From: an uncultured delta proteobacterium
GTDB lineage: Bacteria > Desulfobacterota > RBG-13-43-22
DNA: 64,000 nucleotides
Assembly (NCBI GenBank): GCA_963843145.1
Contig: CAWJJC010000006.1
Location: forward strand, 1-64,000
Direction of reading: 5' to 3'
Shown: piece after piece, positions 1 to 57,720 of the stretch
How positions within the stretch are numbered: position 1 is the stretch's first letter
How the letters are laid out: each line of letters opens with the position of its first letter
Made by a program: the position numbers and the translations under genes
The notes under the pieces: model-generated
What the model saw: the letters and a program-made list of their open reading frames with translations, nothing else
Database searches by the model: none
Told to the model about the DNA's origin: nothing

Positions 1-1
1 G

Positions 2-1138
2 GAATTCCCCCAAACCAAGACCATCCTCTTTTCCGCCTTCCAGGATATGGATACGACCATTCAGGCCATTAAATTGGGGGCCTATGATTATGTCCTGGAA
101 GATATCGATCTCCAGGAATTGGATCATAAAATCCAAAAGGCCATTCGTATCTTAACCTTAAATGCCCAGATCGCTCCTCTCCAGGAACCGCAATCCTTTT
201 CTTCTCTCGGATTCACTTTGATCGGTCAAAGCAAGGCCATGCGGGATATTTATAAATTTATCGGACTGATCTCCAATACCACAGCCCTGGTCGGAATTCG
301 AGGCGAGACGGGAACGGGGAAGAAGTTGATGGCGCAAGTCATCCATCAAAACAGCCCCAACCGGGAAGGCCCCTTTGTCACCGTGGACTGCACCACGATT
401 GTCGAAACCCTGTCGGAGAGCACCCTCTACGGCCACGAAAAAGGGTCTTTTACCGGGGCCGTGGAGAGTCATCGAGGTTTATTCGAGATGGCGGCGGAGG
501 GAACTATTTTTCTCGATGAGATCGCGGATCTTCCGCTTTCCATGCAGGGCAAACTCTTGCGTTTTTTGCAGGAGAAAGAATACCAGCGTATCGGGGGCAC
601 TTCCCAGAAAAAGTCCAATGCCCGGATCGTGGTCGCCACCAACCGGGACCTCTATCAGGCCATCACCCAGGGTAAATTTCGAAAAGACCTCTACTACCGA
701 CTCAAAGTCCTGACCATTTATATCCCCCCCCTACGGGAACGTCGGGAAGACATTCCCCTCTTGATCCAGCATTTTTTGCACAAGATCAATCGCGAACACC
801 ATACCCGGGTATTAAAGATCGAAGACCGGGCGATTCAATTGCTTAGTGAATACGACTGGCCGGGAAATGTACGGGAAATGGAAAATCTGCTGACGTTGGC
901 CTGCATTCTGGGCAAGGAAGAGGTCATTCTGGAGGAGACGGTCAAAGAGATTCTAAATCGCAGCCAACGCCTTCCTTATGATCGTCCGAATGTTTCCTCC
1001 TTGGGCGAAGCCGAGGAAGAGATTCTGAAAAGGGCTTTAAAAACAACCCAAGGGAATCTGACCCAGGCGGCCAAATTATTAAAAATTTCCCGGCCCACCT
1101 TGAGGGCTAAAATTCAGAAGTACCGACTTTCGCTTTAG
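2..1138 (+). CDS. Sigma54-dependent response regulator (NtrC family), 5'-truncated by the window edge
   Basis: Frame is open from base 2 (EFPQTKTILFSAFQDMDT). Receiver tail GAYDY, Walker A GETGTGK, GHEKGSFTGA, Walker B FLDEI, WPGNVRE and C-terminal Fis-type HTH (NLTQAAKLLKISRPTL). Confidence 0.93.
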   Translation, partial: EFPQTKTILFSAFQDMDTTIQAIKLGAYDYVLEDIDLQELDHKIQKAIRILTLNAQIAPLQEPQSFSSLGFTLIGQSKAMRDIYKFIGLISNTTALVGIRGETGTGKKLMAQVIHQNSPNREGPFVTVDCTTIVETLSESTLYGHEKGSFTGAVESHRGLFEMAAEGTIFLDEIADLPLSMQGKLLRFLQEKEYQRIGGTSQKKSNARIVVATNRDLYQAITQGKFRKDLYYRLKVLTIYIPPLRERREDIPLLIQHFLHKINREHHTRVLKIEDRAIQLLSEYDWPGNVREMENLLTLACILGKEEVILEETVKEILNRSQRLPYDRPNVSSLGEAEEEILKRALKTTQGNLTQAAKLLKISRPTLRAKIQKYRLSL

Positions 1139-1158
1139 TCTTTACTTTACGGATCAGC

Positions 1159-1199
1159 GGCAAAGATTTTTCCGGCCCTGGAAAAGGGTTTTCCAGGGC
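1159..1199. promoter_or_regulatory. Candidate upstream activator sites for the sigma54 activator (two dyads)
   Basis: GGCAAA-gat-TTTTCC (1159-1173) and GGAAAA-ggg-TTTTCC (1180-1194), 21 bp apart. The second sits inside a perfect 11-bp inverted repeat (1175-1199), about 75-110 bp upstream of the -24/-12 element. Confidence 0.6.
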
Positions 1200-1229
1200 A
1201 ATCATTTGCTGGAGCAGGTCCCTTCAAAA

Positions 1230-1242
1230 TAACACTTTGATT
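1230..1242 (-). promoter_or_regulatory. IHF binding site
   Basis: Minus strand AATCAAAGTGTTA matches WATCAANNNNTTR exactly and lies between the candidate activator sites and the sigma54 promoter. Confidence 0.65.
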
Positions 1243-1267
1243 CCAATTAGTTGTCTATTTGCAGGGT

Positions 1268-1284
1268 TTGGCATTGAACTTGCT
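1268..1284 (+). promoter_or_regulatory. Sigma54 (-24/-12) promoter of operon 1
   Basis: TTGGCATTGAACTTGCT: GG-N10-GC, just downstream of an NtrC-type gene. Confidence 0.85.
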
Positions 1285-1372
1285 TTACAAAAAAACAGAG
1301 ATTCGAATTTCTGATTTTAGTTCAGGCAAGGCAAACAGCTAATCCTTCCACTTGGAAGCGGAAAGGCAGACT

Positions 1373-2125
1373 ATGCGACTAAAAGATAAAGTAGCCATCG
1401 TAACCGGTGCCGCCAAAGGTCTGGGCCGGGCCTTTTGCCTGGGGTTGGCAGGGGAAGGGGCCCGAATCATGGCCGTGACGCGCAAGGATCTGGACAACCT
1501 GGAGCAAACTGTCCGGATGATCCGTTCCCTGGGCGGGGAAGCCGAAATGATTCAAGCCGACGTGGCCCTGGAGGGAGATACCCGGGCCATGGCCCAGGAA
1601 ACGCTCAAAAAATTTGGTCGTCTCGATATCCTGCTCAACAATGCGGCTATTTACGACGGGATCAAAAGGAAGCCTTTTTTTGAGATTGATCTGGCGGAAT
1701 GGGACCTGGTTATGAACGTGAATGTCAAAGGGGCCTTTTTATCCGCCCGGGCTGTCTTTCCTTTCATGAAAGAGCAGGGATATGGGAAGATCGTTAACCT
1801 GGCCTCGGAGGTTTTCTTTACGGGGTCCACCGGGTTTGCCCATTACGTGGCCTCCAAAGGGGGTATTATCGGTCTGACCCGAGCCCTGGCGGTGGAACTG
1901 GGACCGCATAATATCTGCATCAACTGTATTGCTCCCGGTTTTACCGATACCGAGGCCAGCCGGGGAATAGCTGATGTCTCCAAATACGATGTTTCCAAGA
2001 CGCCCTTGAGACGGCTGGAAAAGCCGGAAGATCTGGTGGGAGCAGCCCTTTTCCTGGCTTCTCCGGAAAGTGATTTTATAACCGGGCAGACCCTGTTGAT
2101 CGACGGGGGACGGGCCATGCATTAA
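1373..2125 (+). CDS. Short-chain dehydrogenase/reductase (classical SDR; resembles aryl-alcohol/pyridoxal dehydrogenase-type SDRs)
   Basis: TGAAKGLG, NNAA, YVASK. ATG at 1373 follows a GAAAGG RBS (the ORF track starts at TTG 1352). Confidence 0.9.
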   Translation: MRLKDKVAIVTGAAKGLGRAFCLGLAGEGARIMAVTRKDLDNLEQTVRMIRSLGGEAEMIQADVALEGDTRAMAQETLKKFGRLDILLNNAAIYDGIKRKPFFEIDLAEWDLVMNVNVKGAFLSARAVFPFMKEQGYGKIVNLASEVFFTGSTGFAHYVASKGGIIGLTRALAVELGPHNICINCIAPGFTDTEASRGIADVSKYDVSKTPLRRLEKPEDLVGAALFLASPESDFITGQTLLIDGGRAMH

Positions 2126-2279
2126 AAACCAAGCAGGTTCACCGCCCACCTTTACTTTTCAGGGCAGGCGCCGGCCTGGATAGTAAAGGTTTTAAGGCAA
2201 CGCATTTAAACGAATGGGCAGAATCCGGGTCTCTCTTTCGAGAGGCCCTAATTAATAACCACCAAAAGGAGGAGGAAGC

Positions 2280-3962
2280 ATGAAAGTGTATGATGTCGTC
2301 CCCGGTTTGGAATTTGAACCAGAAAGAGATTTTGCCCAATCGCCCGCCTGGTTTTTGGACGGCACCCATTCCGTCCCGCCCTGGACCCCCATGTTTGGTT
2401 GGTTTTGGGTCAACTTCTGCCGCCACGGTATGCAGTACGGTGCGGAAAAGCTGAGCCTGCCAACGGTTAAGGGCTGGGATTGGCGTTTTCACCGAGGGGG
2501 TGGGTACCTGACCTTGTTGCTGGTCCACAGCGAGGAAGAAAAACAACGAAGAGAAACCGAATTTCGCAAGGCCATCCTCCCCTTTATTGAAGATTATGAC
2601 GGCTTGTGGGGAGGACTGGTCAAGGAGATCTTAGGGCGTTATGAAAAGCTGAAGGCCCTGGATCTGGAGCAGGCTACCAACATTGAACTCCTGGATAATT
2701 TTGAAGAGACGATCAACACCTGCCGCCGGATGTGGGAAATCCACATGTACATGATGTACGGCACCTATACGGCCTATATCCTTTTTGAAAACATGTGCCG
2801 GGAACTGGCCGGCATCGACGACACCTCCCCGGCCTTCCATAAGCTGGTTTCGGGTTTTGACAATAAGGTCTTTCAGGTAGACCGCCGTCTCTGGGAGTTT
2901 TCCAAAAGGGCCCGAGAGGACGGATTGGCCGAAACCATCCTGGGCAGCAAGCCCGCTGAAATCCAGAGCCGTCTCCAGGAATCGGCCAAGGGCAAAGAAT
3001 TCATGAAAGACTTCATGGCCTTCATGAATGAAGACGGCTGGCGCATGCAACGGATGTCCGAGATGAATATGCCCACCTGGGTGGAAGACCCCACACCGGC
3101 CCTGGTCAACGTGAAACAGTTTCTTCAGAAGGGCGGGGGCTTTAACCTCGAGGAGGAGCGGGGCAAAATAACCGAACAGCGGAAAGCGGCGGAAAAAGAG
3201 GTTCTGGCCAAGGTTCCCCAGGATCAGCGGGGCTGGTTTGGCCGCTTGATGGTTTTGGCCCAAAAGAGCGGGGTCTTCAGCGAGGAGCATGACCACTACC
3301 TGGATCTCTATACGCATGCCATGATGCGTCGCAGCGCCTTGGGTCTGGGAAAGCGTTTCGCCCAGAAAGGGGCCCTCAACGAAGCCGACGATATTTTCTT
3401 CCTCATGCCCGATGAGGTGCGCCGGGCCGGGATCAACCCCGACCAATTTGATTTGCGCTACATTGTGGATCGTCGAAGAGCGGAGTGGCAGGAATGGCAA
3501 AAGACGCCCAACCCGCCGGCCTTCTTAAAAGAGGGTTTCGATCTGGATATGGCCATGGGGGTCCTGGTGCAATCCATGGATCCTATCGCCCTGAAAGTCG
3601 TGGTCGGTTCCATGCCCCAGGTCCGTCCGGAGCTCAAGGCCGACCTCTATGGGAGCTGCGGTTCCCCCGGAGTGGCCGAAGGTCCGGCCCGGGTGATCTT
3701 GAACGAAGACGAACTTCACCTGGTCGAAGAGGGAGATATCCTGGTAGCGGCCAGTACCTCGCCCAGTTGGACCCCGGTTTTTTCCATGATCAAGGGCGTG
3801 GTCGTGGACCGCGGGGCCAGCCTTTCCCATGCCGCTATTGTGGGAAGGGAATACGGCATTCCGGTGGTCATGAATGTCTTTGAGGGTACGGCCAAGATCA
3901 AGTCCGGTCAGCGGATCAAGGTCGATGCCAATCTGGGGGTCGTGTTTATTTTGGACAAATAA
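2280..3962 (+). CDS. Phenylphosphate synthase alpha-like subunit (substrate-binding region plus PEP-utilizing His swivel domain)
   Basis: N-terminal WFLDGTH resembles the WFYDGLH motif I recall from Thauera PpsA. C-terminal SPGVAEGPARV, TSPSWTPVF and DRGASLSHAAIVGREYGIP (phospho-His motif). Strong AGGAGGAGG RBS. Confidence 0.85.
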   Translation: MKVYDVVPGLEFEPERDFAQSPAWFLDGTHSVPPWTPMFGWFWVNFCRHGMQYGAEKLSLPTVKGWDWRFHRGGGYLTLLLVHSEEEKQRRETEFRKAILPFIEDYDGLWGGLVKEILGRYEKLKALDLEQATNIELLDNFEETINTCRRMWEIHMYMMYGTYTAYILFENMCRELAGIDDTSPAFHKLVSGFDNKVFQVDRRLWEFSKRAREDGLAETILGSKPAEIQSRLQESAKGKEFMKDFMAFMNEDGWRMQRMSEMNMPTWVEDPTPALVNVKQFLQKGGGFNLEEERGKITEQRKAAEKEVLAKVPQDQRGWFGRLMVLAQKSGVFSEEHDHYLDLYTHAMMRRSALGLGKRFAQKGALNEADDIFFLMPDEVRRAGINPDQFDLRYIVDRRRAEWQEWQKTPNPPAFLKEGFDLDMAMGVLVQSMDPIALKVVVGSMPQVRPELKADLYGSCGSPGVAEGPARVILNEDELHLVEEGDILVAASTSPSWTPVFSMIKGVVVDRGASLSHAAIVGREYGIPVVMNVFEGTAKIKSGQRIKVDANLGVVFILDK

Positions 3963-3974
3963 AAAACCCATTGG

Positions 3975-4009
3975 GACCTTTCCTTCCCCGTGACGGGGAG
4001 GGAAAGGTC
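3975..4009 (+). other. 16-bp stem-loop between the ppsA-like and ppsB-like genes, no U-tract (possible mRNA-stabilising hairpin)
   Basis: GACCTTTCCTTCCCCG-TGA-CGGGGAGGGAAAGGTC with one G-U pair. Confidence 0.6.
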
Positions 4010-4026
4010 TTCCAGGAGCAGGTTCC

Positions 4027-5052
4027 ATGAGCGAACAATGGATCTTTTGGTTTGAGGAATTGGGGACCGGGGACAACGACCGGGTAGGGAAAAAATGTGC
4101 CAACCTGGGGGAGATGACCCGACTGGGCCTGCGCATTCCTCCCGGATTTGCCATTTCCATAGACGGGTACGAACGATTTATGGCTGAAACCGGAGCCGGC
4201 GAGGAGATTCGGCGCTATGTCCAGGAAAACCGGGAGCATTTAAAGGAGGTTAAAAATCAAATAATAGCCAGTCAGGCTATCCGGAACATTATCGAGTGCA
4301 AAGAAATGCCCCCGGCCATGAGGGAGGAGTTGTTCCAATATTACGACCAGTTGAAAGAACGGGCCGGAGTCCAGGAGCTTTCGGTGGCCGTCCGGTCCAG
4401 CGGGGCGGTCAGCATGCCCGGCCAGATGGAGAGCTATCTGAATGTCCGGCGGAAGGAAGCGGTACTCCAGAAGGTGATCCAGGTCTGGGGAAGCGCCTTT
4501 ACCACCCGGGCCATAGCTTTTCGGCTGGAGAAAGGGATGGCCATGGAAAAGGCTCCCATCGGCATCGCCGTCCTGAAGATGGTGGAGGCCAAGTCCGCCG
4601 GCGTGGTCTTGACGGTCTTACCGACGAGCGGAGACCTGTCGAAGGTAATCGTGGAAGGCAACTGGGGTTTGGGTGAGAGTGTGGTCAGCGGCGAAATTAA
4701 CCCCGATCAGTTTATTGTCGATAAAAGCGACGGGACGGTGGAAAGCACCGTCCATAGTAAAACCAAGATGGTGATTTATCATGAGGGGGGGACCGTTACC
4801 GCCCAGGTTCCGGAGGCCATCCAGGAAAAGCCCTGTGTCAACCCGGAAGAATTGAAAGAAATCGTGCGGATCGCCAAACAAGTGGAGGAGCATTTTCAAA
4901 CTCCCCAGGACATGGAATGGGTCCTGGATGGTGTTCAATCCATTCCGGAGAGTCTTTATTGGGTCCAGGCCCGACCGGCTAAATACGCCCAGGTCAAAGA
5001 AAAGGAATCCGAATATCTGGCGGAGCTGATGACCCGCCTGTTTAAGTTTTAA
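4027..5052 (+). CDS. Phenylphosphate synthase beta-like subunit (stand-alone PEP-synthase N-terminal ATP-grasp domain)
   Basis: VGKKCANLGEM, PPGFA, AVRSS, NWGLGESVVSGEINPD, QDMEW, VQARP. No His or TIM-barrel domain. Confidence 0.88.
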   Translation: MSEQWIFWFEELGTGDNDRVGKKCANLGEMTRLGLRIPPGFAISIDGYERFMAETGAGEEIRRYVQENREHLKEVKNQIIASQAIRNIIECKEMPPAMREELFQYYDQLKERAGVQELSVAVRSSGAVSMPGQMESYLNVRRKEAVLQKVIQVWGSAFTTRAIAFRLEKGMAMEKAPIGIAVLKMVEAKSAGVVLTVLPTSGDLSKVIVEGNWGLGESVVSGEINPDQFIVDKSDGTVESTVHSKTKMVIYHEGGTVTAQVPEAIQEKPCVNPEELKEIVRIAKQVEEHFQTPQDMEWVLDGVQSIPESLYWVQARPAKYAQVKEKESEYLAELMTRLFKF

Positions 5053-5083
5053 TTCCTTTCTTCAGGCCGGAAAAGGAGAAACG

Positions 5084-5743
5084 ATGGCCATCCTGTTTAC
5101 ACAATATTGGGATGTGATGCCCGGTAAATTTGATTCCTATACGGCTTTTATTACCCAGGAGTACAATCCCGCCCTGCAGCAGTTGGGGATTCGGTTGGTG
5201 GGAGGGTATTATGTGGCGGTAGGCGAAGGTCCCCGGATTGTGGCCGTAGCTACGGTGGATGAAACCGAGAATTTGCGGAAGACCATTTCATCCCCGGCCT
5301 ACCGGGAGATTTCCAATAAATTACTCGAATACGTCTGGAAATATACCAATAAAGTCTATGTCCCCTCCGGACGCATCCAGGAAGGACCGTACCGCATCCA
5401 GACCGGAGTTTGGAAATTCAACCAGTATTATAACGTCCTCCGGGGTCAGGAGGAGGCCCATCGGAAGTTCGTCAAGGAAGAATGCCTGCCGGGGATGGAA
5501 GAATTAAAGATCCCGCTTACCGGAGGGTGGCGTCTGGTCATGGGCAGCGGCCCGAGGATCCTGGCTGAAGCTACCGGGCGAAGTATTGTCGATATCGCCA
5601 GGGCCATTGATACCTCTCTCTTCAGAAAGTTGGTCAGGACCCTGAAAAATGAGTTTGCCACGGACTACGGCAGCCGGATCCTGGCCCCGACGGGACGGAT
5701 TGAAGTACCGTACCTGATGAGCGAAATGATGAAAAAATTTTAG
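5084..5743 (+). CDS. Hypothetical protein with two internal repeats (NIPSNAP-like / dimeric alpha-beta barrel)
   Basis: Repeat 1 FTQYWDVMPGK...GGYYVAVGEGPRIVAVAT; repeat 2 FNQYYNVLRGQ...GGWRLVMGSGPRILAEAT. AGGAG RBS. Confidence 0.65.
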   Translation: MAILFTQYWDVMPGKFDSYTAFITQEYNPALQQLGIRLVGGYYVAVGEGPRIVAVATVDETENLRKTISSPAYREISNKLLEYVWKYTNKVYVPSGRIQEGPYRIQTGVWKFNQYYNVLRGQEEAHRKFVKEECLPGMEELKIPLTGGWRLVMGSGPRILAEATGRSIVDIARAIDTSLFRKLVRTLKNEFATDYGSRILAPTGRIEVPYLMSEMMKKF

Positions 5744-5826
5744 CCGGAAGCTTTAGGATTTCTGGCTAAAATTTTTATATTTTCGATTCTTTTCTTTGGC
5801 AGCAAGGTGATTTGGAGAACAACGAC

Positions 5827-7782
5827 ATGATCCCGGAACGGCCCATCTATTGGATGATCGGGGAGGTCTGGGTCTTTTATGTCCTGGCGACCCTGGCCGT
5901 CGGCCTGCTGGTCCTCGGAGTGGCCGCCCACCTCCGGGTGTGGATGAAAAGCGCTCCCGGGAGCCGGACGGCGTTTTCCGGGCCCGCCCTGGGGCAGGCC
6001 CTCCTGGATATCTTCCTGGGGCGGACCGCCTTTAAAGGGGAGCCCTGGGCCGGTCTCATGCATTTTTTGATCTTCTGGGGATTTATCGTCCTCTTGATCG
6101 GCACTTCCCTGCTGGCCGGGCACGAATATCTCTCTCCTTTTCTGATCGGCCGGGCCCATCTTGTTTTCGAAGTCGCCATGGAAATTGGTGGACTCCTCCT
6201 CATTGCCGGTGTCGTCTGGGCCTTGATTCGACGGTATCTGCAACGGGTCCCCCGGCTGGAACGCCGTCTGGAGGACGCCGTCATCCCGGTCGGTTTGCTG
6301 ATCGTGGCCTGTTCCGGGTTCCTGCTGGAAGGCCTACGGCTGGCGGTTCAAAAGCCCGCCTGGGCCCAGTGGTCCTTTGTCGGGTCCGGGATCGCCGGTT
6401 TGATCCCCGAGCCGGCCGCCTTGACGGCCTACCCCTACTTCTGGTGGGGACACGCCCTGGTGAGCCTGGGTTTCATTGCCCTGATCCCCTACGGCAAACT
6501 CTTTCATTTGGTGGGAGGGCCGGCGGCCCTTTACCTCCACCGCGTTCCCGAAATAAGGAAACCGGCCGAATCCGAAGATAGCGAAATGGAAGAAGGCCCC
6601 TCTCTGGCGGAGGTGGTTTTCTATGACGCCTGCATGCGCTGCGGACGCTGTGTTCAGTCCTGTCCCTCCAACGGCGCCGGCGAGCCCCTGGCCCCCCGTG
6701 ACTTCGTCCAGGCCGCCCGTCGGGGGCTATGGCGGGAACATTCTCCCCAGGGCGATATCCGCTTTCTAACCCCCGAGAAGGCCCTCGAAGATAAAACGGC
6801 CTGGTACTGCACCACCTGTGCCGCCTGCGGGGAGATCTGCCCGGTGTATGGCGTCCCCTTCAAGCTGATAACGAAGCAGCGGACCCGACTGATCGAGGAA
6901 GGGAAGGAAGTCCCCGACCTGATGAATCAGACCCTGGAGCGGCTTTTCAACTATGACAACCCCTGGGTGTCTTCCAAGCGGGAACGGGCCGTCTGGGCCA
7001 AGGGTCTGGGTCTCCCGATCCTGAAAGCGGACGGGAAAGTGTCTCCCTTGTGCTATTTCGTGGGCTGCACGACCTCTTTCGACGCCCGGGCCCAGGGGAT
7101 CGCCAGGGCCTTCACGGATCTCCTGCAAAAGGCCGGAGTGCGCTTCGGGATCATCGGCGACAAGGAACCCTGCTGCGGAGATATCGGCCGGGTGACCGGA
7201 GAAATCGGGCTGTTCCAGGAAAAGAGGGAAAACGCCCTGGAACTCTTTGACCGCCTGGGTATCCGGGAGGTGGTCACCTCCTCGCCCCATTGCTTCCACT
7301 CACTCTTCCATGAATATCCCGGAAGGCCCTTCGAGGTGCGGCACTATACCATGGTCCTGAGGGAGCTGATCGCCGCGAAAAGGCTGACCTTCAAAAGCGC
7401 CGGGACCCGGACAGTGACCTTTCACGATCCCTGCTATTTGGGCCGCCACAATCGCCTCTTCGATGAACCCCGGGAAATCATCCGCGCCCTGCCCGGCGTA
7501 ACCCTGGTGGAAATGGCCCACCATGGCCCGAACAGCCTCTGCTGCGGCGGCGGCGGCGGCCGGATGTGGCAGGGAACGGACCTGCGGGGGGAGGCGCGCA
7601 TGAGTGAAATACGGATGAAGGAGGCCCGGGACAGCGGGGCGGAAGTTTTGATTACCGCCTGCCCTCTCTGCCTGGTCATGCTGGAAGACGCCTGGAAGAC
7701 TTTGGGTTTAGAAGAAAAGATGAAGGTCATGGATTTGAACGAGGTGGTGCTGGAGGCTTTGGAATATAAAAAAAGCCAATAA
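5827..7782 (+). CDS. Membrane-bound FeS oxidoreductase (NarI-like membrane domain, 4Fe-4S dicluster, two CCG domains); ETF:(methyl)menaquinone oxidoreductase type
   Basis: Hydrophobic N-terminus with His motifs (LMHFLIFWGF, WWGHAL, KLFHL); CMRCGRCVQSCP; CTTCAACGEICP; CCGD, FHDPCYLGR, CCGGGGG, TACPLC. Adjacent to etf genes. Confidence 0.88.
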   Translation: MIPERPIYWMIGEVWVFYVLATLAVGLLVLGVAAHLRVWMKSAPGSRTAFSGPALGQALLDIFLGRTAFKGEPWAGLMHFLIFWGFIVLLIGTSLLAGHEYLSPFLIGRAHLVFEVAMEIGGLLLIAGVVWALIRRYLQRVPRLERRLEDAVIPVGLLIVACSGFLLEGLRLAVQKPAWAQWSFVGSGIAGLIPEPAALTAYPYFWWGHALVSLGFIALIPYGKLFHLVGGPAALYLHRVPEIRKPAESEDSEMEEGPSLAEVVFYDACMRCGRCVQSCPSNGAGEPLAPRDFVQAARRGLWREHSPQGDIRFLTPEKALEDKTAWYCTTCAACGEICPVYGVPFKLITKQRTRLIEEGKEVPDLMNQTLERLFNYDNPWVSSKRERAVWAKGLGLPILKADGKVSPLCYFVGCTTSFDARAQGIARAFTDLLQKAGVRFGIIGDKEPCCGDIGRVTGEIGLFQEKRENALELFDRLGIREVVTSSPHCFHSLFHEYPGRPFEVRHYTMVLRELIAAKRLTFKSAGTRTVTFHDPCYLGRHNRLFDEPREIIRALPGVTLVEMAHHGPNSLCCGGGGGRMWQGTDLRGEARMSEIRMKEARDSGAEVLITACPLCLVMLEDAWKTLGLEEKMKVMDLNEVVLEALEYKKSQ

Positions 7783-7836
7783 TCGACGGTTAACAATTGA
7801 TTGTTAATTGGGATTCGGTTGGATGAAAGGAACATT

Positions 7837-8820
7837 ATGAGTGAGATTTTAATTTTGGCGGAGGGGCTGGGAGATGTTCCCGACAAGAAGACCCTGGAGC
7901 TCTTTCGGGCCGGGTCGGAGCTGGCCGGGGACCTGGGGATCCCGGTCTCGGCCGTCGTAGCGGGAGAAAAGGTAGCCTCCCTGGCAGCCGCGGCTGCCGC
8001 ATATGGGCTGCAAAAGATCTACCTCCTGGAGCACCCCCTGCTCCAAGGCTTTCAGCCGGAGGCCTGGGTGGGGGCCTTGGAGTGGCTGTGCCGGCAAATC
8101 AACCCCCGGATCCTGCTGATCGGCCAGGCCTATATCGGCCGGGAAGTGGCCCCCCGACTGGCCTTTCGACTCCAGACCGAGCTGACTACCGACTGCCTGG
8201 GCCTGTCCATCGACCCGCAGGACGGTCTGCTGGTGCGCACCAAGCCCATTTACGGGGGCAACGCCATCGCCATCTTGAAAGGCGCCGGTTCGCCGCAGAT
8301 GGTCACCGTCCGTAAAAACGTCTACGAACCCCTGGAGGCGGGAACCGGGTCGAGTGAAATCGTAGCGCTGACGCCCCCGCTGGAAGAATCAGCCATCCGG
8401 GTCAAATTCCTGAAGACGGTGCCGGAGGAAGTGGTCGAACTGGACAAGGCCAACATGGTGATCTCCGGCGGCCGAGGCATTGCCGAAAAGGAGGATTTCG
8501 AACTTTTGGAAGCCCTGGCCCGCGCTTTGGGCAAAACCCACGGCCAGGTGCTCATCGGCTGCAGCCGACCGGTGGTGGATAAATGCTGGCTGTCCTCCGA
8601 CCGGCAGGTCGGATTGACCGGGTCGATCATCGCCCCGGACGTCTACCTGGCCATCGGCATCTCCGGGGCCATCCAACACCTGGTGGGCATGGTCCGGTCC
8701 AAGAAGATCATCGCCATCAATACCGATGCCGGCTGCAACATGTTCAAGGTGGCCGACTACGGCGTGGTGGAGGACTATAAGGACCTGCTGCCGGCCCTGG
8801 TCAAGAAACTGGAGGGATAG
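7837..8820 (+). CDS. etfA: Electron transfer flavoprotein alpha subunit
   Basis: SGGRG, SRPVVD, QVGLTG, GISGAIQHLVGM, IAINTD. ATG at 7837 follows AAAGGA. Confidence 0.93.
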   Translation: MSEILILAEGLGDVPDKKTLELFRAGSELAGDLGIPVSAVVAGEKVASLAAAAAAYGLQKIYLLEHPLLQGFQPEAWVGALEWLCRQINPRILLIGQAYIGREVAPRLAFRLQTELTTDCLGLSIDPQDGLLVRTKPIYGGNAIAILKGAGSPQMVTVRKNVYEPLEAGTGSSEIVALTPPLEESAIRVKFLKTVPEEVVELDKANMVISGGRGIAEKEDFELLEALARALGKTHGQVLIGCSRPVVDKCWLSSDRQVGLTGSIIAPDVYLAIGISGAIQHLVGMVRSKKIIAINTDAGCNMFKVADYGVVEDYKDLLPALVKKLEG

Positions 8821-8822
8821 CC

Positions 8823-9662
8823 ATGAAGGAACCGAACATCATCGTCTGCGCCAAACAGATACCGGACCCCGAGGCGCCTTTCTCGGACGTCCGGGTCGAT
8901 GTGGAAAAAATGGAAGTCATCGTCGACGCTCCCAACGTCATCAGCCCTTACGATGAAAACGCCCTGGAGGCCGCCATCCGAATCAAGGAGGAACTGGGGG
9001 GCAAGATCACCGTTCTCAGCCTGGGCCGGAAGGTGGCGGACACGGTGCTGCGCAAGACCCTGGCGGCCGGGGCCGACTCTTTGATACTCCTGGAAGACCC
9101 TTCCTTTGAGCGGCTGGACAGCAACTCCGTGGCCTATGTCCTTTCCCGAGCCATTCAGAAGATCGGCGCCTACGATCTGATCCTTACCGGCAGACAGGCC
9201 GGAGACTGGGACGCCGGGCAGGTGGGGCTTATCCTGGCCGAGTGGCTGGGAATTCCGGCCATCAATCTGGCCCGGTCGGTAAAAATTCAGGACGACCGGC
9301 TCCTGGTGGAAAAGACCGTGCCCGTAGGCTACGAGGTGGTGGAGACCGGATTGCCGGCCCTGGTCACGGTGAGTAACGAGGTGGGGGAGTTACGCTACGT
9401 TTCCCGGACCAAGATGATGGCCCTGCTCAAGCGCCCCATCCCGATCCCCAAGTGGGGGGCCAAAGACCTGGTGGACGACCCCGCCCGTCTGAAGCCGATC
9501 CAAATGCTGTCCCTGGCGCCGCCGGCGGACATGGGGCGGCAGTGCCTGATCATCGAGGGCGCCTCCCCGGAGGAAAAGGCGGAAAAGCTGGCTGCCGTGA
9601 TCATGGAGATACAGATGAAAGCCTGGAAGGTAAATACAAATTTAAAAATTCAAACCAAATGA
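8823..9662 (+). CDS. etfB: Electron transfer flavoprotein beta subunit
   Basis: IVCAKQIPD, SPYDENALEAA, GRQAGDWDAGQVG, LPALVTV. Confidence 0.93.
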   Translation: MKEPNIIVCAKQIPDPEAPFSDVRVDVEKMEVIVDAPNVISPYDENALEAAIRIKEELGGKITVLSLGRKVADTVLRKTLAAGADSLILLEDPSFERLDSNSVAYVLSRAIQKIGAYDLILTGRQAGDWDAGQVGLILAEWLGIPAINLARSVKIQDDRLLVEKTVPVGYEVVETGLPALVTVSNEVGELRYVSRTKMMALLKRPIPIPKWGAKDLVDDPARLKPIQMLSLAPPADMGRQCLIIEGASPEEKAEKLAAVIMEIQMKAWKVNTNLKIQTK

Positions 9663-9683
9663 ATATTATAGGGAGGTAAAGTC

Positions 9684-11325
9684 ATGCCTGACAAAACGTA
9701 CGATGCAATTATTATTGGGGGAGGACATCATGGAACCACGATAGCCCCCTATTTGGCCAAAGCGGGTTTGAAGGTGGGAGTATTTGAACGGCTGGACCAC
9801 CTGGGCGGTGGAGCGATCACGGAAGACCTCCCCTCACCGGGTTTCCGGGGGAACTTTTGCGCCCACTTCACCCGGTATTATGGTCACCCGGCCTATAAGG
9901 AATTCAACCTCCGGGACGAAGGCCTGGAATACACCTTTCCCGATACCAACGAAGCCATCATCTTCGACGACGGGACCAGTTACGTGGCCTACGCCGCCTT
10001 TACCGTGGTCGATCCCCAAACCGGCGAAAGTCGGTTCAACGAGACCAATGTCAAGAAGACCTACGACCAGATCGCCCGCTTTTCCAAGAAGGATGCGGAA
10101 ACCTATTTGGACCTGACGGAAAAATATAAGAACAAGTGGCGGGCCGCCTTCCATAAGCACCGTTATTCGCCCCCCACACCCTACGGTGTGCCCGATGCCC
10201 TGGAAGAATTGTGTAACGACCCCCAGAGCGGCCTGGATGTGCCCATGCAGTTTATGACTTGCAAGCAGATCGCCCGTTACTTCTTCGAGAGCGACGAACT
10301 GCGCATCCTGACCCTGCGGGGCTATCTGACCTCCTGGGGCTGTTTTCCGGACGACGTGCCCGGCCTGATGGTCACCATCGCCACCATTCACCTGACCCTG
10401 GGCTGGGAACCGGCCGCCATCGCCAAGGGGGGGACCGGGGCCATCACCAGCGCCCTGGTTTCGGCCGGCCGCAAACTGGGGGTGGAGTATCATCTCAATT
10501 CCGAGGTTCAGCGAGTGCTCCTTGATAACGGCCGGGCCACAGGCCTCAAACTGCTGGACGGGACGGAGGTGACGGCCAAGCAACTGGTGGTCTCGGACAA
10601 CGCCTCGCCCGCAGCTCTTTCTGCGGCTCATCGGCGAAGACCGGATTACCGAGGACATGAAGCGCAAGGCCCGCGTCTATCAGTTCGACCGAGGCGAGCT
10701 GTTCTGGGGCACGGTGGGGGTCCACGAACTGCCCAATTACACGGCGGCCAAGGACAACCCCGACGTGAACGCCACCCCCCGCACCTATTTCGCCCCCAAG
10801 GACCTGGGCTTCATGGAAGACAAATACCAGCACGAGATCTTCTTGTTCGGCATGCCCTCCAAGATGTTCATCCTGACCGCCCCGGACAGCATCTGGGACC
10901 GCAGCCGGGTGCCCGAGGGGAAATATTCCCTGCACGTCGAAGAGTTCACCTGCCCGGCCCGCCTCTTCTCCCGTAAGGAATGGAAGCAGATGACCCAGGA
11001 ATTCGTGGACGTGCTCTTCGAGCGTTGGGCCGAGTACGCCCCCAACATGACCAAGGATAATCTGATCGTGCAGCGAATCACCAACCCCACGGACATTCAG
11101 GACACGCACCTGGACATGCGGGAAGGGGGCTGGTGTGAAGGCAACGTGGCCGGCGTGCAGAACGGGCGCTTCCGGGGTCTGCCCGGCGGGTACCGGACCT
11201 TCATCCCGAACCTGTACATGTGCTCTTCCGGCGTGTACGGGGGGCCGGGCATCGGACGCGGTTCGAGCTATAACTGCTATAAAATGATTGCCGAAGACCT
11301 GAAGCTGCCGATGCCGAAATACTAA
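9684..11325 (+). CDS. Phytoene desaturase-family (COG1233) FAD-dependent oxidoreductase, about 546 aa, split by a single extra base near 10608-10610
   Basis: IIGGGHHG...ERLDHLGGG FAD motif; C-terminal YRTFIPNLYMCSSGVYGGPGI. Removing one C from TCGCCCGCAG joins ORFs 9684-10976 and 10657-11325 (SDNASPQLFLRLIGEDRITEDMKRK). Confidence 0.82.
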
Positions 11326-11349
11326 ACTTCGAAGACGAATACCGAGATC

Positions 11350-11396
11350 AAATTTGAAGCACGAAATCTAGAATGTGGATTTCGTGCTTCAAATTT
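11350..11396. repeat. Perfect 19-bp inverted repeat in an intergenic spacer
   Basis: AAATTTGAAGCACGAAATC-9 nt-GATTTCGTGCTTCAAATTT. Shares GAAGCACGAAATC with the element at 56.0-56.2 kb. Confidence 0.85.
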
Positions 11397-11438
11397 CAAA
11401 TTTTACTTTTTATATTTTCCTTAGGTTTGAGGAACACC

Positions 11439-14111
11439 ATGCAGGCGATAAATTTCCAGGTTAACGGCATCCCGCGCAGGGTAATTACCGATCCTCAGCG
11501 AAAGCTCAGCGAAGTCCTGCGGAGAGATTTGAAGTTAACGGGCACCAAGGAAGGCTGTAAAGAGGGGCACTGCGGCACCTGTACCGTCCTTCTGGATGGT
11601 CAGGCCGTTTTGGCCTGCAAGGTCCCGGTCACCAAGGTTCGCGGCCGGGCGGTGACCACCATCGAAGGGCTGGGCACTCCCGACCGGCCTCATCCGCTGC
11701 AAATGGCTTTTGCCAAGGCCGGGGCCATTCAATGCGGGTTCTGTACCCCGGGCCTGATCCTCCGCTCCCAAGCCCTGCTCACAAAAAATCCGTCGCCTTC
11801 CCGGACGGAAATCCAAAGCGCCCTGCAGCCTCATCTCTGCCGTTGCACCGGTTACCAAAAGGTCTTCGAGGCCGTCGAATTGGCCGCCGCGGTCCTACGC
11901 GGGGAAAGAGGCCCGATCTCCCTGCAAACGGAAGGGGACCTCATCGGCCAGCCGGTGGTCCGCGGCGATGCCCTGAACAAGGCCACCGGCACGACCCTCT
12001 ACGCCGACGACATCGCCGTGGAAGAATGCTGCACCCTGAAGGTATTGCGTAGTCCTTACCCCCATGCCCAGATCCTGGAGATCGACAAGGCCGCGGCTGA
12101 GCGGGCCCCCGGGGTCCTGGCGGTCCTCACCGCGGCGGATGTGGGCGGGACCAATATCCTCAAGATGGCCGGGGACGATCAACCCTTGCTCTGCGGGGAC
12201 AAAGTACGCTACATCGGCGACCCCGTGGCCGCCGTGGCGGCCCGGTCCGAGGAGGAGGCCCGCCTGGCCCTGAACTTGGTCAAGGTGACCTATAAACCGC
12301 TCGAACCCCTGATGACCCCCCGGGAGGCGTTGGCGAAAGGCGCCCCCCGGGTGCACGACGATCGGGAAAACCTGTTTTTTCAGCAACCGATTATCTTTGG
12401 CGGGGCCGAGAAGGGCCGCCTGGAAACTGCGTTTACCGTCGAGGCCCGCTACACCACGCAGACGGTCGATCACGCCTACCTCGAGCCGGATTCCGGCATC
12501 GCTTTCATTCACGAAAACGGTCAACTGGTGATCGTTTCCGGGAGCCAGAATATCCATGCCCACCGCAAGACCATCGCCGGGGCCATCGGACTTAACCTGG
12601 AGCAGGTCCGGGTGATCCAACCGCCCATGGGGGGCGCTTTCGGGGGACATCTCGACGTCTCCGTGGGCGGCCTGATCGCCCTGGCCGCCTGGAAACTACA
12701 AAAACCGGTGAAACTGGTTTTCACCCGGGCGGAGACCTTCCAGGCCACCACCAAGCGGCACCCTTTTTACCTGGACTTCAAAATCGGGGCCGCCAAGGAC
12801 GGCACCTTTACCGGCCTGGAGGTCGATCTGCTGGCCGACGGCGGGGCCTACAAGTCTTTTTCCAACAGCGTCACCACCCGGGGGCTGGTTCACGCCAGCG
12901 GTCCCTATCGCTTTCCTCAGGCCCATCTGCTCGGGCGGTCTGTTTACACCAACACGGTGGTCCGGGGCGCCATGCGGGGCTTCGGCGTTCCCCAGACCAT
13001 CTTTGCCCTGGAATCGGCGGTGGACGAGCTGGCCCTGAAAATGGGGATCGATCCGCTGGAACTGCGCCTCAAAAACGCCTTTATCCCCGGCGATACGACC
13101 GTCTGCGGACAGGCCCTCACCGATGCCTTCGGCTATCGGGAGTGCCTGGAGACCCTGCGGCCCCATTACCGGCGGGCCCTGGATGAGGCCCGAACCCAGG
13201 GGACCGCGGAGGTGAAGCGCGGTGTGGGACTGGCCGGCATCTGGTTCGGTCCCGGGCGCAGCGCCCCCGATCAGTCCGAGGCTTGGGCCGAGCTGCTTCC
13301 GGACGATCGGCTCCAGGTCTGGATCGGCGCGGCCGACATGGGTCAGGGGGCGGAGACCCTGTTCTGGCAGGTGGCCGCCCAGACCATGGCCTTTCCCCTG
13401 GAGCGGGTCCAGGTCTGCACCACCGACACCCGCTTAACGCCGGACGGCAACTTTTCAGCGGGCAGCCGCCAGACCTATGTCTCGGGCCGGGCCGTCCAGA
13501 TGGCGGTCGAGGAATTGAAAAACGCCATGGAGGCCCACGGGGTCGCCAACTATGAACAGATGAAGGCCAAGGACCTGCCCATGATCTACAAGGCGATCAA
13601 CCGGACTGAAACCACCAAGCTCGACCCGGAAGACGGCCAGGGTGTGCCCTGGGAGACGTACTCCTTCGGGGTCCAGATGGCGGAGGTGGCGGTGGAGATG
13701 ATGACCGGAAAGATCAAGGTATTGAAGGTGACCGCGGTAAGCGACCTGGGCACGGTGATCAACCGCCAGATCGTGGAGGGCCAGATCGAAGGCGCGATCG
13801 TCATGGGCCTGGGCTACGCGCTGTCGGAAGAATTCGTCTACAACGTGACCGACAGTTTCGCCAAATTCCGGATCCCGCGGGCCAAGGACGCCCCCCGCAT
13901 GGAAGTGATCACCCTGGACATTCCTCGGAAGAAAGGTCCTTTCGGGGCGTCGGGCACGGCCGAATATGCCGATGCCCCCACGGCCCCGGCTATTATGAAT
14001 GCCGTCGCCCAGGCTTGCGGTGCCCGTATCCGGGACCTGCCGGCAACCCCCGAAAGAGTCAGAGAGGCCCTGAGGGGAATTTTGGACGCAAATGAACGCA
14101 GATTGTCATGA
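11439..14111 (+). CDS. Single-chain molybdopterin aldehyde oxidoreductase (xanthine oxidase family, Desulfovibrio Mop-like; two 2Fe-2S plus Mo domain, no FAD domain)
   Basis: GCKEGHCGTC...AC, QCGFCTPG, LCRCTGY, GGAFGG, AMRGFGVPQ, GSRQT, GQIEG. ATG at 11439 follows GAGGA. Confidence 0.9.
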   Translation: MQAINFQVNGIPRRVITDPQRKLSEVLRRDLKLTGTKEGCKEGHCGTCTVLLDGQAVLACKVPVTKVRGRAVTTIEGLGTPDRPHPLQMAFAKAGAIQCGFCTPGLILRSQALLTKNPSPSRTEIQSALQPHLCRCTGYQKVFEAVELAAAVLRGERGPISLQTEGDLIGQPVVRGDALNKATGTTLYADDIAVEECCTLKVLRSPYPHAQILEIDKAAAERAPGVLAVLTAADVGGTNILKMAGDDQPLLCGDKVRYIGDPVAAVAARSEEEARLALNLVKVTYKPLEPLMTPREALAKGAPRVHDDRENLFFQQPIIFGGAEKGRLETAFTVEARYTTQTVDHAYLEPDSGIAFIHENGQLVIVSGSQNIHAHRKTIAGAIGLNLEQVRVIQPPMGGAFGGHLDVSVGGLIALAAWKLQKPVKLVFTRAETFQATTKRHPFYLDFKIGAAKDGTFTGLEVDLLADGGAYKSFSNSVTTRGLVHASGPYRFPQAHLLGRSVYTNTVVRGAMRGFGVPQTIFALESAVDELALKMGIDPLELRLKNAFIPGDTTVCGQALTDAFGYRECLETLRPHYRRALDEARTQGTAEVKRGVGLAGIWFGPGRSAPDQSEAWAELLPDDRLQVWIGAADMGQGAETLFWQVAAQTMAFPLERVQVCTTDTRLTPDGNFSAGSRQTYVSGRAVQMAVEELKNAMEAHGVANYEQMKAKDLPMIYKAINRTETTKLDPEDGQGVPWETYSFGVQMAEVAVEMMTGKIKVLKVTAVSDLGTVINRQIVEGQIEGAIVMGLGYALSEEFVYNVTDSFAKFRIPRAKDAPRMEVITLDIPRKKGPFGASGTAEYADAPTAPAIMNAVAQACGARIRDLPATPERVREALRGILDANERRLS

Positions 14112-15457: not shown

Positions 15458-15511
15458 TTTCTTCTCCTTTTTTGTAGTACCTGCTTTTTTTGAATTGCCG
15501 GATGACTTAAC

Positions 15512-16438
15512 TTAGTACCTTTTAGAAGCTGGTCTTCCTTTTGTCGCCATCCCCACGAGACCTCCAGGCAGAAAGAGCACGATAACGATAAATACGACGC
15601 CAAAGATGAGCACATTGATCTGGCCCAGGTTGATGGCAAAGATCTCCTTCAAGATGACGTAGCCGACAGCACCGATGATGGTCTGGTATGGTGCCTGCCC
15701 CTCCGATGAAAACGATCAGCACCGGGTCGAAGGACCACACGAGGTCAAAGGGGACATAGTAATAGTAGCTCACATAATAATAGGCAAAAAGCCCTCCGGC
15801 CAATCCAGCGATAAAGGTGCTGAGCCCCATGGCTATCACCTTAAACTTGATCACGCTAATACCTGTCGCGGCCGCTGCTTCTTCATCTTCGCGGACGCAG
15901 AGCATGGCCAGCCCCAACTTGGAACGGTTAATCCCGTATACACCGGCGATGGTCAGTATGACCACTCTGAAGGCCGTGTAAAACCGGGATACCGGATTGT
16001 ATCCCGCAGACATGACAATCGCGGACAAAAAGTCCACCCCGGGCAGCACATTCTGAACAGTAATCAAGGCAATCATGGCGACTCCAAGGGTGCCGATGGA
16101 AAAGTAATGGGCCCCTCAATCGTAAGGTAGGCAGACCGATCATGCAGGCCAAAATGAGGGCTGAACAGGGCTCCGCACAATAAGGCTATGGGGAAGGGGT
16201 AGCCGGCTACCCAGACGGCGCGGCAGCAAAGCGAGCCCATGCCGAAAAAGGCGGCCTGTCCCAGGTTGACTGCGATTTACAGTACCCCCCGAGAAGGTTC
16301 CAGCTATGGATAATATGGTATATAAGCAGAGCATGAAAAGGATGTTCAAGATATACTCGCTTTTTATAAAAATGGGCACCAGGCCAACGGCTGTACTTGC
16401 AAAATCATTATGGATTTTTTGTTTATGTTTGCCATCAT
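15512..16438 (-). pseudogene. LivM-type permease (transporter 2) with several frameshifts
   Basis: Fragments in different frames: YILNILFMLCLYTILS, SKLGLAMLCVREDEEAAAATGI, SFDPVLIVFIGGAGTI, FIVIVLFLPGGLVG. Confidence 0.75.
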
Positions 16439-17304
16439 GACTTTCTCCCCATCAACCCCTGGGGCCGGAGTAGAAGAAAAAATACAAAAAAGCACCAGAC
16501 CGATGACCTCACGGTAGGCGGCTCAGAAAAAGAACGCCAGTGGCCTCGGCAATACCGAGGGACAGGCCGCCCAACAGGACCCCGTAAACGCTTCCAACCC
16601 CGGCAAGGACTACGACCACCAGGGCCTTGTTCGTCAACTCAAACGAGACCGTGGGCTGAAGGATGATAAAGAGACCAAGACGCCCGGCACGGCAGCCAGA
16701 GCCACACCGATTCCGAAAGAGACCAGATAGGTGAGCCCGACGTTGATACCCATCATGGCCGCGGCTTCGTGGTCCTGGGATGCGGCCCGAATGCCTTTGC
16801 CGAAATAAGTCCTGGCCAGAAAGAAGTCGAGGAAGATGGTGACCAGCACGGCAAAACTGACCGCGCCGATACCGATATAGGGTATGCGCAGGCCGAAACC
16901 CAAGACGAGGCCGGCATAATCAGGGGTTACGGCCCTTTCATCGGCTGTCCAGTAGATGGTGGCCAGGTTGGAGAGGATCAGAAGAAGGCCGAACAGATCG
17001 AAAGGGGAATTTTTGGTCTTCTGACCTTCGGGAAACCCCTTAAAGAGGATCAAAGAGGATTTTGTAAAGGATCAGACCCAGAATAAAAAAGGCCGGGGTT
17101 ATGATCACTACCGAAAGGAAGGGGTCTATCTTCAACAGATGGACGAGCCAGAAACAGGCATAAACTTGCCCCCATGATGAGGGCGCCATGGGCTACGTTC
17201 AAATAGCTCATGACCCCGAAAACGAGTGACAGCCCCAGACCGACCGCCCCGTAAAGGGCCCCGTTAATCAGGCCGTATAAAAGAATCTGAAGGGTAGTGA
17301 CCAT
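16435..17304 (-). pseudogene. LivH-type permease (transporter 2) with several frameshifts
   Basis: GLINGALYGAVGLGLSLVFGVMSYLNVAHG in one frame, RTYFGKGIRAASQDHEAAAMMGIN in another; the C-terminal LLRPQGLMGRKS is in a further segment. Confidence 0.75.
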
Positions 17305-17309
17305 ATCTT

Positions 17310-41357: not shown

Positions 41358-41460
41358 TTCGAAAACTTCCGAAGGACGGCCCCACAGGTTTTTCCGCTTG
41401 AACCCTTCTTGAAATGACACCTCCGCCGGGGACTCCTCTTGCCGGAACAGCGGACCAGTT

Positions 41461-57531: not shown

Positions 57532-57720
57532 GAAGGTAAATTTACTTTCAATATTACTTTACCATGATCCAGCCACCAAATCAACTGTCCACCGGCGGTG
57601 CCTTGGTCCTGAACTCCCCGGCCCGGGCGGGTACCCACTAAGGACGCCCCGGGCCGGCGGATTATCATTGAAAAAGATAAGCATTTGATGCTAAATAAGT
57701 CATCCCTTGGCGAGGTTATC

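Follow-up and report, generated by a model that had tools for sequence, protein, structure and literature searches.

Introduction

Anaerobic bacteria are known to attack methylphenols either through PCMH, a periplasmic flavocytochrome that needs high-potential acceptors, or through glycyl-radical fumarate addition. The D. gibsoniae genome paper assigned cresols to fumarate addition only, and use of p-cresol is documented for Syntrophorhabdus aromaticivorans (PMC3916484). Here we analyze a sigma-54 operon located at positions 1268–14111 of a 64-kb stretch of DNA (the window: positions 1–64,000 of contig CAWJJC010000006.1, from an uncultured delta proteobacterium), in which genes for a PpsAB-like kinase stand beside genes for a CrtI-family flavoprotein, an electron-transfer flavoprotein (ETF) and an aldehyde oxidoreductase (AOR).

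Among the closest described systems is the cre pathway for 4-cresol of Corynebacterium glutamicum, in which the kinase CreHI, a PpsAB homologue (PMC12167813, PMC9618137), is accompanied by the P450 system CreJEF, the alcohol dehydrogenase CreG, the aldehyde dehydrogenase CreC and the phosphohydrolase CreD, roles that we take from the table covering creC through creJ in PMC7764795. In the Hpe pathway for hydroxyphenylethanones, as described in PMC9618137, the phosphate ester is the sole form that the middle enzyme will use, and the phosphatase has a preference for the product. Oxygen-independent side-chain oxidation is represented by CtmAB, which hydroxylates a methyl group with water according to the account in PMC11061730, and a membrane outlet for ETF electrons by EMO, characterized in PMC8805022 as a diheme/FeS membrane enzyme. 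Our searches of the open literature found no description of the present gene combination, subscription journals and bioRxiv supplements being outside our reach. A 2026 paper on benzene degradation by strain BzS1 (PMC13416013) was considered and set aside, as its flavoprotein is of the unrelated glycolate-oxidase/VAO type.

Organization and conservation of the operon

Genes were called from Pfam and NCBIfam scans of the window, and gene maps of further loci were obtained with tblastn. Ten same-direction genes, separated by gaps of 2–154 nt, occupy positions 1–14111 of the + strand. The nine gene types that an earlier note on this DNA had assigned to a single sigma-54 operon were all confirmed by these scans at 1268–14111, behind a sigma-54 promoter. 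The operon was also said to be devoid of carboxylase, CoA ligase and acyl-CoA dehydrogenase genes, and domain scans detected none within 1268–14111; genes of these types occur at 26–30 kb on the opposite strand, in another cluster.

The first of the ten genes (2–1138), whose 5′ end is cut off by the window edge, encodes a sigma-54-dependent response-regulator activator of the NtrC type (Sigma54_activat, E 2e-63; AAA_lid_14; HTH_8; a receiver remnant). Downstream lie genes for a short-chain dehydrogenase (SDR; 1373–2125; adh_short_C2, E 8e-61), the alpha component of a dikinase of the PpsA/CreH/HpeH type (2280–3962; PEP-utilizers domain), the ATP-grasp beta component of the PpsB/CreI/HpeI type (4027–5052; PPDK_N, E 5e-85) and a 219-aa tandem NIPSNAP-like (alpha+beta barrel) protein (5084–5743). 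These are followed by a 656-aa EMO-type membrane ETF:menaquinone oxidoreductase (5812–7782, with the ATG at 5827 as an alternative start candidate), EtfA (7801–8820; ETF and ETF_alpha domains), EtfB (8823–9662; ETF domain), a CrtI/COG1233-family flavoprotein of 546 aa if intact (9684–11325) and a single-chain, 912-aa Mop-type Mo aldehyde oxidoreductase (Mo-AOR; 11373–14111) with two [2Fe-2S] and MoCo domains. We read this operon, with about even confidence, as a predicted catabolic module for a phenolic compound bearing a methyl (or hydroxymethyl) side chain, which would be degraded via a transient aryl phosphate.

The conservation of this arrangement was followed in loci (numbered with an L) from two scans: 80 from species genomes, searched with a flavoprotein alignment, and 80 more from metagenomes, searched with an alignment of its C-terminal part. 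We mapped 86 loci, 81 of which carry the flavoprotein; no dereplication was applied and some loci share a source study, so that the counts overstate independence. The flavoprotein gene is preceded by EtfB in 51 of the 61 loci with at least 1 kb of upstream sequence and directly by EtfA and EtfB in 41 of the 46 with at least 2.2 kb. Where 4.5 kb or more of upstream sequence is available, EMO precedes etfAB in 23 of 28 loci. An SDR gene adjoins the flavoprotein gene in 50 of 71 loci. Among 37 loci with long flanks, PpsA or PpsB occurs in 25, a tungsten AFOR (W-AFOR) or Mo-AOR in 30, a phosphatase-type gene in 22 (ARMT1/DUF89 in 15), UPF0261 and a receiver-only protein in 11 each, and the 219-aa protein in four; several of the 12 kinase-less loci reach the end of their contig just past the AOR gene. 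The most frequent order is LysR on the opposite strand, then EMO-EtfA-EtfB-Flav-SDR-(HdrD-like-HdrA-like)-W-AFOR-PpsA-PpsB-receiver-ARMT1-UPF0261, where Flav is the flavoprotein.

Six of the 80 species-genome loci have a flavoprotein with at least 47% identity, one of them partial. In four of the six, which belong to Thermodesulfobacteriota and Dehalococcoidia (L011, L012, L014 and L015), PpsA-like and SDR genes occur as well. Within the taxonomic order of the window the flavoprotein is found in 11 of 21 genomes. All four of the same-order genomes whose loci were compared share the window arrangement SDR-PpsA-PpsB-219aa-EMO-EtfAB-Flav-MoAOR, and two of them, G003 and G001, add ARMT1. The gene cluster occurs commonly in metagenomes from sediments, soils and wetlands. 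Contig 4 of genome G020 (L197, L191/L014, L192, L193) carries three flavoprotein paralogues in a stretch of about 33 kb, of which one belongs to a carboxylase/thiolase/HGD-D cluster, another to a reversed LysR-SDR-Flav-EtfBA-EMO-UPF0261-ARMT1 cluster and a third to a window-type operon.

The earlier note had made its proposal depend on joint conservation of the ETF/EMO/flavoprotein/AOR block and the pps-like pair, and as far as sequence allows the block is indeed kept with the pair in many genomes. The sequences show directly which genes are present, that the sigma-54 promoter is conserved and that all the parts stay together across loci. It is very improbable that shared regulation or island structure, with no common pathway, accounts for this co-location. 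Catabolic islands are mosaic and a 26-kb block has been inserted into this very locus, yet the genes remain together in Thermodesulfobacteriota, Chloroflexota and further lineages, where they are arranged in a number of different orders. Moreover, the 5.3-Mb genome has just three two-component PpsA-like genes, which makes chance co-location unlikely.

The kinase pair and its companion proteins

The PpsA-like protein has a PEP-utilizers swivel domain as its sole Pfam domain (E 3e-22), and its catalytic-His motif, GASLSHAAIVGR, fits the GGxT[SC]HAA-like motif given for the alpha components of two-component dikinases in PMC12167813. Its residues 233–559 align with residues 560–867 of rifampin phosphotransferase (RPH), that is, with the RIF-binding and swivel domains (E 8e-27), and the same resemblance is described for HpeH (PMC12167813). 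The ATP-grasp component is encoded separately, 64 nt 3′ of the PpsA-like gene. By these sequence features the pair is a two-component small-molecule dikinase of the PpsAB/CreHI/HpeHI kind, with phosphorylation of a phenol as its predicted activity.

The operon PpsA is only 29–30% identical to the two other PpsA-like proteins of the genome. The canonical phenol-type cluster of the same genome (L196; contig 20 of G000, 462000–481999) has the order LysR, then PpsA (628 aa)-PpsB-UbiD-CoA ligase-UPF0261-PAC_bac-UbiX-UPF0261-HD, and its PpsA shares 30% identity with that of the operon. Since the genome has this separate PpsAB-UbiD-UbiX cluster, we do not take the operon kinase to be the phenol kinase. 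UPF0261 and HD genes accompany aryl-phosphate kinases in both kinds of cluster. The genome also contains at least ten swivel-domain genes, and two tandem genes near the end of the window (57685–60321 and 60807–63401) encode single-chain proteins of 878 and 864 aa, in which PPDK_N and PEP-utilizers domains are accompanied by long stretches that lack an assignment.

The 219-aa protein gave no Pfam match at default thresholds. It is a true tandem repeat, with halves 33% identical (E 1e-20), and its homologue in L012 matches NIPSNAP (2.7e-6). The gene always lies immediately 3′ of PpsB, and its product, which is not of the PpsC type, is possibly a kinase accessory. Our search recovered no longer, fused forms of it, which is weak evidence. 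In L114, L121, L156, L167 and L014 the slot right after PpsB is taken by a receiver-only protein of about 167 aa; the two proteins may be alternative kinase helpers.

The flavoprotein and its probable redox partners

The earlier note had singled out the COG1233 flavoprotein as the likely partner of the ETF, and its near-universal adjacency to EtfAB (the 41 of 46 loci mentioned above) argues for this assignment. The electrons would leave through the protein encoded next to etfA, whose NarI-like membrane part (Nitrate_red_gam, 27.8 bits), Fer4 domain and two CCG domains, together with the position beside etfAB, identify it by sequence as a member of the EMO class, with a predicted diheme membrane part and an FeS part.

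The reading frame of the flavoprotein gene is broken into two overlapping frames by one extra base, the G at 10611, where the window reads TCGCCCGCAGCTC. A tblastn search with the intact 546-aa homologue P0001 placed a +1 shift at 10608–10611, the two flanking parts being 97% and 98% identical to it. The extra base is absent from G003 (same genus, 98% identical here), G002, G001, L091 and L094, as well as from a contig of run X2, and near-identical contigs of X1 and X3 continue from 10610 in the intact frame. No relative checked has the base, so the break probably reflects faulty assembly or a mutation of very recent date rather than decay. No second copy of the flavoprotein gene was found in this genome. 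Further split genes in the assembly include the ARMT1-like gene, a CoA ligase on contig 20 and several AFOR genes, which suggests a raised indel error rate. Splits into short same-strand open reading frames were seen in ABC permease genes (15500–18100), the ARMT1-like gene (40474–41357) and the CoA ligase gene (L196, 4648–6307), and in G004, of the same genus, another single-nucleotide indel occurs 30 nt from the break in the window. Wetland metatranscriptome contigs from one library cover parts of etfB and of the flavoprotein gene at 97–100% identity; we do not count them as proof of expression because DNA carry-over is possible.

In CtmAB and the steroid delta24-desaturases, FMN is bound covalently to the His of the motif G-F-L/R-X-N/S-T/L-H-A, as set out in PMC11061730. 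The nearest non-family relatives of the window protein among the fetched loci (30–34% identity) carry this motif, and the His form is seen in L018-L023 and L028. The window protein has PGFRGNFCAH, with a Cys at the place of the flavin-binding His. This residue, Cys59, is invariant in 13 homologues of the window clade, and a paralogue in L014 has Gly there. Membership of the CtmAB/delta24-desaturase family, which we considered, was rejected, as the protein is a single subunit (one gene, one copy) and Cys replaces the FMN-binding His. By its sequence, then, it is related to that family as defined but is not a member of it, and a cysteinyl-bound flavin is possible in the window clade. A CrtO beta-carotene ketolase (NF045689) was likewise rejected at 96 bits against a cut-off of 1000.

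This kinship with allylic oxidases bears on another interpretation, which we find quite improbable: that the kinase would phosphorylate a tertiary or allylic aliphatic alcohol, the phosphate would be eliminated to give an alkene, the flavoprotein would hydroxylate the allylic methyl group, and SDR and AOR would carry it to the acid, much as in the Sterolibacterium C25/C26 side-chain route and with limonene dehydrogenase. RPH, the closest solved relative of PpsA, does phosphorylate an aliphatic hydroxyl. CtmAB and delta24-desaturases do act at allylic carbons, and the anaerobic sterol route, in the outline of PMC11061730, runs through kinase, lyase, allylic hydroxylation, aldehyde and acid. However, the two-component dikinases characterized in our sources all act on a phenolic OH or an aniline NH2, the neighboring genes belong to aromatic pathways, and the clusters offer no lyase candidate, ARMT1, HD and LMWPc being hydrolases. 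The aromatic context comprises a Ppc-like UbiD with HAD in L156, an Hcr-like Mo enzyme with CoA ligase in L015, and HGD-D/BcrAD in L014.

The enzymes encoded next to the flavoprotein point to successive oxidations. The SDR has (S)-1-phenylethanol dehydrogenase 2ew8 among its five best Protein Data Bank matches. The Mo-AOR aligns over its full length with MOP of D. gigas (residues 29–901 with 7–906, E 2e-174) and is assigned by sequence to the Mop-type aldehyde oxidoreductase class, although it reaches 789 bits against NCBIfam NF045668, under the cut-off of 1100. W-AFOR and Mo-MOP, two unrelated aldehyde-oxidizing enzymes, replace each other non-orthologously at the same cluster position, W-AFOR being present in most relatives. 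In a clade of 50%-identical paralogues (L014 with L197; L013), Flav and SDR are retained and the place of AOR is taken by biotin carboxylase, CoA ligase and thiolase; the L014 cluster also retains kinase and phosphatase. A set of this type handles 4-hydroxyacetophenone in the Hpe and Aromatoleum routes, and it is the downstream set expected for a ketone, not for an aldehyde. The W-AFOR/Mo-MOP swap, the SDR that nearly always follows the flavoprotein and these ketone-type clusters together argue for an alkyl-to-carbonyl-to-acid series. In another clade (L127, L131-L134, L136, L138, L139, L141, L145 and L146), SDR is separated from a divergent W-AFOR (35% identical) by two genes, one encoding a 1034-aa FAD/FeS protein that resembles HdrA and the other a CCG protein that resembles HdrD; the pair may be a dedicated electron route for low-potential aldehyde oxidation.

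Alternatively, the flavoprotein could be an amine or ether oxidase that, for example by oxidative deamination or O-dealkylation, delivers an aldehyde to AOR and a phenol to the kinase. Its Pfam Amino_oxidase match (E 7e-12) and the conserved aldehyde-oxidizing enzyme agree with such a role, which we nevertheless judge very improbable given that the match covers the general fold only, that the conserved SDR beside the flavoprotein would be left without a role, and that the carboxylase/thiolase paralogue clusters better fit a ketone derived from an alkyl chain.

The phosphatase gene and the 26-kb block

A phosphatase gene, the counterpart of creD, had been missed in the earlier note and belongs to the conserved set. 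A gene of this type is present in 22 of 37 long-flank loci, and in G003 and G001 an ARMT1-like gene comes right after the Mo-AOR gene; other clusters contain an HD-domain or a low-molecular-weight phosphatase gene (L012, L157, L014). The G003 stretch, 255 nt past the Mo-AOR gene, aligns at 76% with positions 40529–41370 of the window, so that in the window about 26.4 kb separates the AOR gene from the gene that closed the ancestral operon. On the basis of this alignment we take the ARMT1/DUF89-like gene at 40474–41357 (+ strand) to be that displaced gene. It is split into two frames in both the window genome and G003, and its product is only 29–31% identical to the cluster-linked ARMT1 of more distant loci. 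The presence of kinase and phosphatase in one cluster suggests a transient phosphate tag, as described for the Hpe (PMC9618137) and cre (PMC7764795) pathways.

The intervening block of about 26 kb (14225–40500, mostly on the − strand) is absent at this place in G003 and looks like another kinase-initiated aromatic pathway. It contains Liv-type ABC transporter genes, a split pps-like pair (PpsB-like, 33427–34407; PpsA-like, 19383–21089, 29% identical to the operon PpsA), genes for an amidohydrolase_2, an OYE, a CoA ligase, an SDR, an acyl-CoA dehydrogenase and a hexapeptide protein, and a sigma-54 response regulator with a PAS kinase at 34682–37221.

Promoter and transcript structure

The pattern TGGCAYN5TTGCW has a single match in the window, at 1269–1284 on the + strand, where 0.11 would be expected. 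This −24/−12 sigma-54 promoter, TGGCATTGAACTTGCT, recurs letter for letter 5′ of the SDR gene in L190, L192, L194 and L094, and with one change in L195, amid flanking DNA that has diverged among the five loci. About 70 nt 5′ of it, at 1175–1199, is a perfect palindrome with 11-nt arms, GCCCTGGAAAA-GGG-TTTTCCAGGGC, which may be an activator-binding site or the terminator of the activator gene. A terminator-like hairpin with a U-tail at 5733–5776 on the + strand (−21.3 kcal/mol, z −3.6) sits between the 219-aa gene, which ends the kinase block, and the gene for EMO. The kinase genes and those from EMO to AOR may accordingly be transcribed in part separately, and a single sigma-54 transcript for the whole stretch is not certain.

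The hairpin would also suit an organization in two separate modules, in which EMO, ETF, flavoprotein, SDR and AOR oxidize a free compound and the kinase phosphorylates the product or another phenol later, for example for carboxylation, with the phosphatase serving in salvage or damage control. Which of the two blocks comes first varies between clades, genes for a Ppc-like UbiD and HAD flank the L156 cluster, and UPF0261 and HD, being present in the canonical phenol cluster too, may be general aryl-phosphate companions. We nonetheless consider this organization unlikely. The kinase subunits are interleaved with flavoprotein, AOR and phosphatase genes in L014, L015, L156 and L157 (Flav between PpsA and PpsB in L014; AOR between kinase and phosphatase in L156 and L157), most clusters lack a carboxylase, and the Hpe middle enzyme, described as accepting only the phosphorylated form, provides a precedent for a persisting tag.

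Proposed pathway and implications

In the pathway that we favor, a phenolic compound with a methyl side chain would be degraded as its aryl phosphate. The dikinase, perhaps helped by the 219-aa protein, would phosphorylate the phenolic OH with ATP. The CrtI-family flavoprotein would then oxidize the benzylic carbon with oxygen derived from water and pass two electrons to the dedicated EtfAB, from there to EMO and on to menaquinone. SDR would convert the alcohol into the aldehyde and Mo-AOR (W-AFOR in most relatives) the aldehyde into the acid, after which the ARMT1/DUF89-type phosphatase would strip off the phosphate to leave a hydroxybenzoate for the benzoyl-CoA route.

We infer the substrate, each chemical step and the order of the steps from the genes. 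Several points weigh against this pathway. Phosphorylation of the para oxygen blocks the quinone-methide route used by PCMH, and we know of no precedent for flavin-dependent benzylic oxidation of an aryl phosphate. The flavoprotein is single-subunit and has no CtmAB-type His, its L014 paralogue having Gly instead, and both its gene and the ARMT1 gene are frame-split in this assembly, in which the phosphatase gene also lies 26 kb from the operon. The hairpin parts the kinase block from the EMO-to-AOR block, and Liv/Peripla_BP_6 ABC transporters in L011 and L160 hint at a charged substrate and not at plain cresol. In Desulfatiglans anilini DSM 4660, finally, the cluster proteins are low and similar on phenol, aniline, benzoate and 4-aminobenzoate (supplement of PMC7500099), which shows only that these four compounds are not inducers.

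The D. anilini homologues (H567DRAFT_01538-01540, 01546 and 01548) were assigned by annotation name and length only: EtfA/B (01538, 01539), a 547-aa “phytoene dehydrogenase-related protein” (01540), a PEP-synthase-like protein (01546) and a 219-aa hypothetical protein (01548). Their order is known from locus-tag numbers and names only, the strain not being among the 21 same-order genomes (best identity 76%). The same supplement (PMC7500099) lists an 885-aa “aldehyde oxidoreductase”, H567DRAFT_01361, with 24 peptides in phenol-grown cells and none on the other three substrates; it is encoded on a different scaffold from the flavoprotein cluster.

A broader interpretation, which we put forward more tentatively and with rather less than even confidence, is that the clusters represent a widespread benzylic C–H oxidation in strict anaerobes (sulfate reducers, syntrophs, Chloroflexota and some Firmicutes) that needs neither oxygen nor fumarate. 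Alkylphenols would be kept as aryl phosphates and oxidized with water by a new CrtI-family clade, possibly with its flavin bound to Cys, that has a private ETF and EMO leading to menaquinone, sister clusters serving methyl chains (with AOR) and ethyl chains (with biotin carboxylase and thiolase). If this is true, a cytoplasmic route linked to a kinase and to ETF/menaquinone would be a third solution for methylphenols, the ETF/EMO system would have a donor other than acyl-CoA, and the CrtI-family flavoenzymes would be extended by a novel type of reaction, or by a novel clade at the least. Anaerobes would share the phosphate-tag logic by which aerobes degrade lignin monomers, with a bearing on the turnover of phenolics in anoxic habitats. 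D. anilini DSM 4660, a cultured carrier by the protein names in its proteome table, makes the hypothesis directly testable.

Comparison with known systems

The EMO and ETF genes resemble those of Syntrophus aciditrophicus in domain make-up and in the adjacency of EMO to etfAB. The donor there is an acyl-CoA dehydrogenase, whereas the operon has no such gene and has a CrtI-family flavoprotein beside etfB. The kinase shares the two-component architecture and catalytic His of phenylphosphate synthase PpsAB(C) and phenylphosphoamidate synthase PasAB, from which the operon differs by the lack of a carboxylase and by a NIPSNAP-like accessory protein.

Limonene dehydrogenase CtmAB and the steroid delta24-desaturases belong with the window protein to one wide family of flavoenzymes; they attack allylic carbons without oxygen, and their N-terminal G-F-x-x-N-x-[H]-A aligns with PGFRGNFCA of the window protein. 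Unlike the latter, which is the product of a single gene and has Cys at this position, they are heterodimers with FMN covalently bound to His; identity to the motif-bearing loci is about 30–34%, and the window encodes ETF and EMO as the predicted acceptor. The Hpe/Acv pathway (HpeHI, HpeCBA, HpeD) has the same succession of a kinase, a transformation restricted to the phosphate ester and then a phosphatase, and the L014/L197 paralogue cluster has the same set of carboxylase, CoA ligase and phosphatase. Hpe, however, belongs to aerobes and includes neither a flavoprotein/ETF step nor an aldehyde step.

The analogy with cre logic drawn in the earlier note stands in part: the kinase, oxidation and phosphatase genes are conserved together and W-AFOR and Mo-MOP are interchanged at the aldehyde step, whereas the flavoprotein falls outside the CtmAB family to which it had been likened. 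In cre, methyl oxidation relies on a P450 that needs O2; the operon has instead a CrtI-family flavoprotein with ETF, EMO and menaquinone, a Mo/W aldehyde oxidoreductase for the NAD-dependent aldehyde dehydrogenase, and an ARMT1/DUF89 enzyme for CreD. The functions nevertheless match one for one, from the dikinase through methyl oxidation with its own electron chain and the oxidation of alcohol and aldehyde to the phosphatase, and by gene content each aerobic cre enzyme has a predicted oxygen-independent counterpart in the conserved set.

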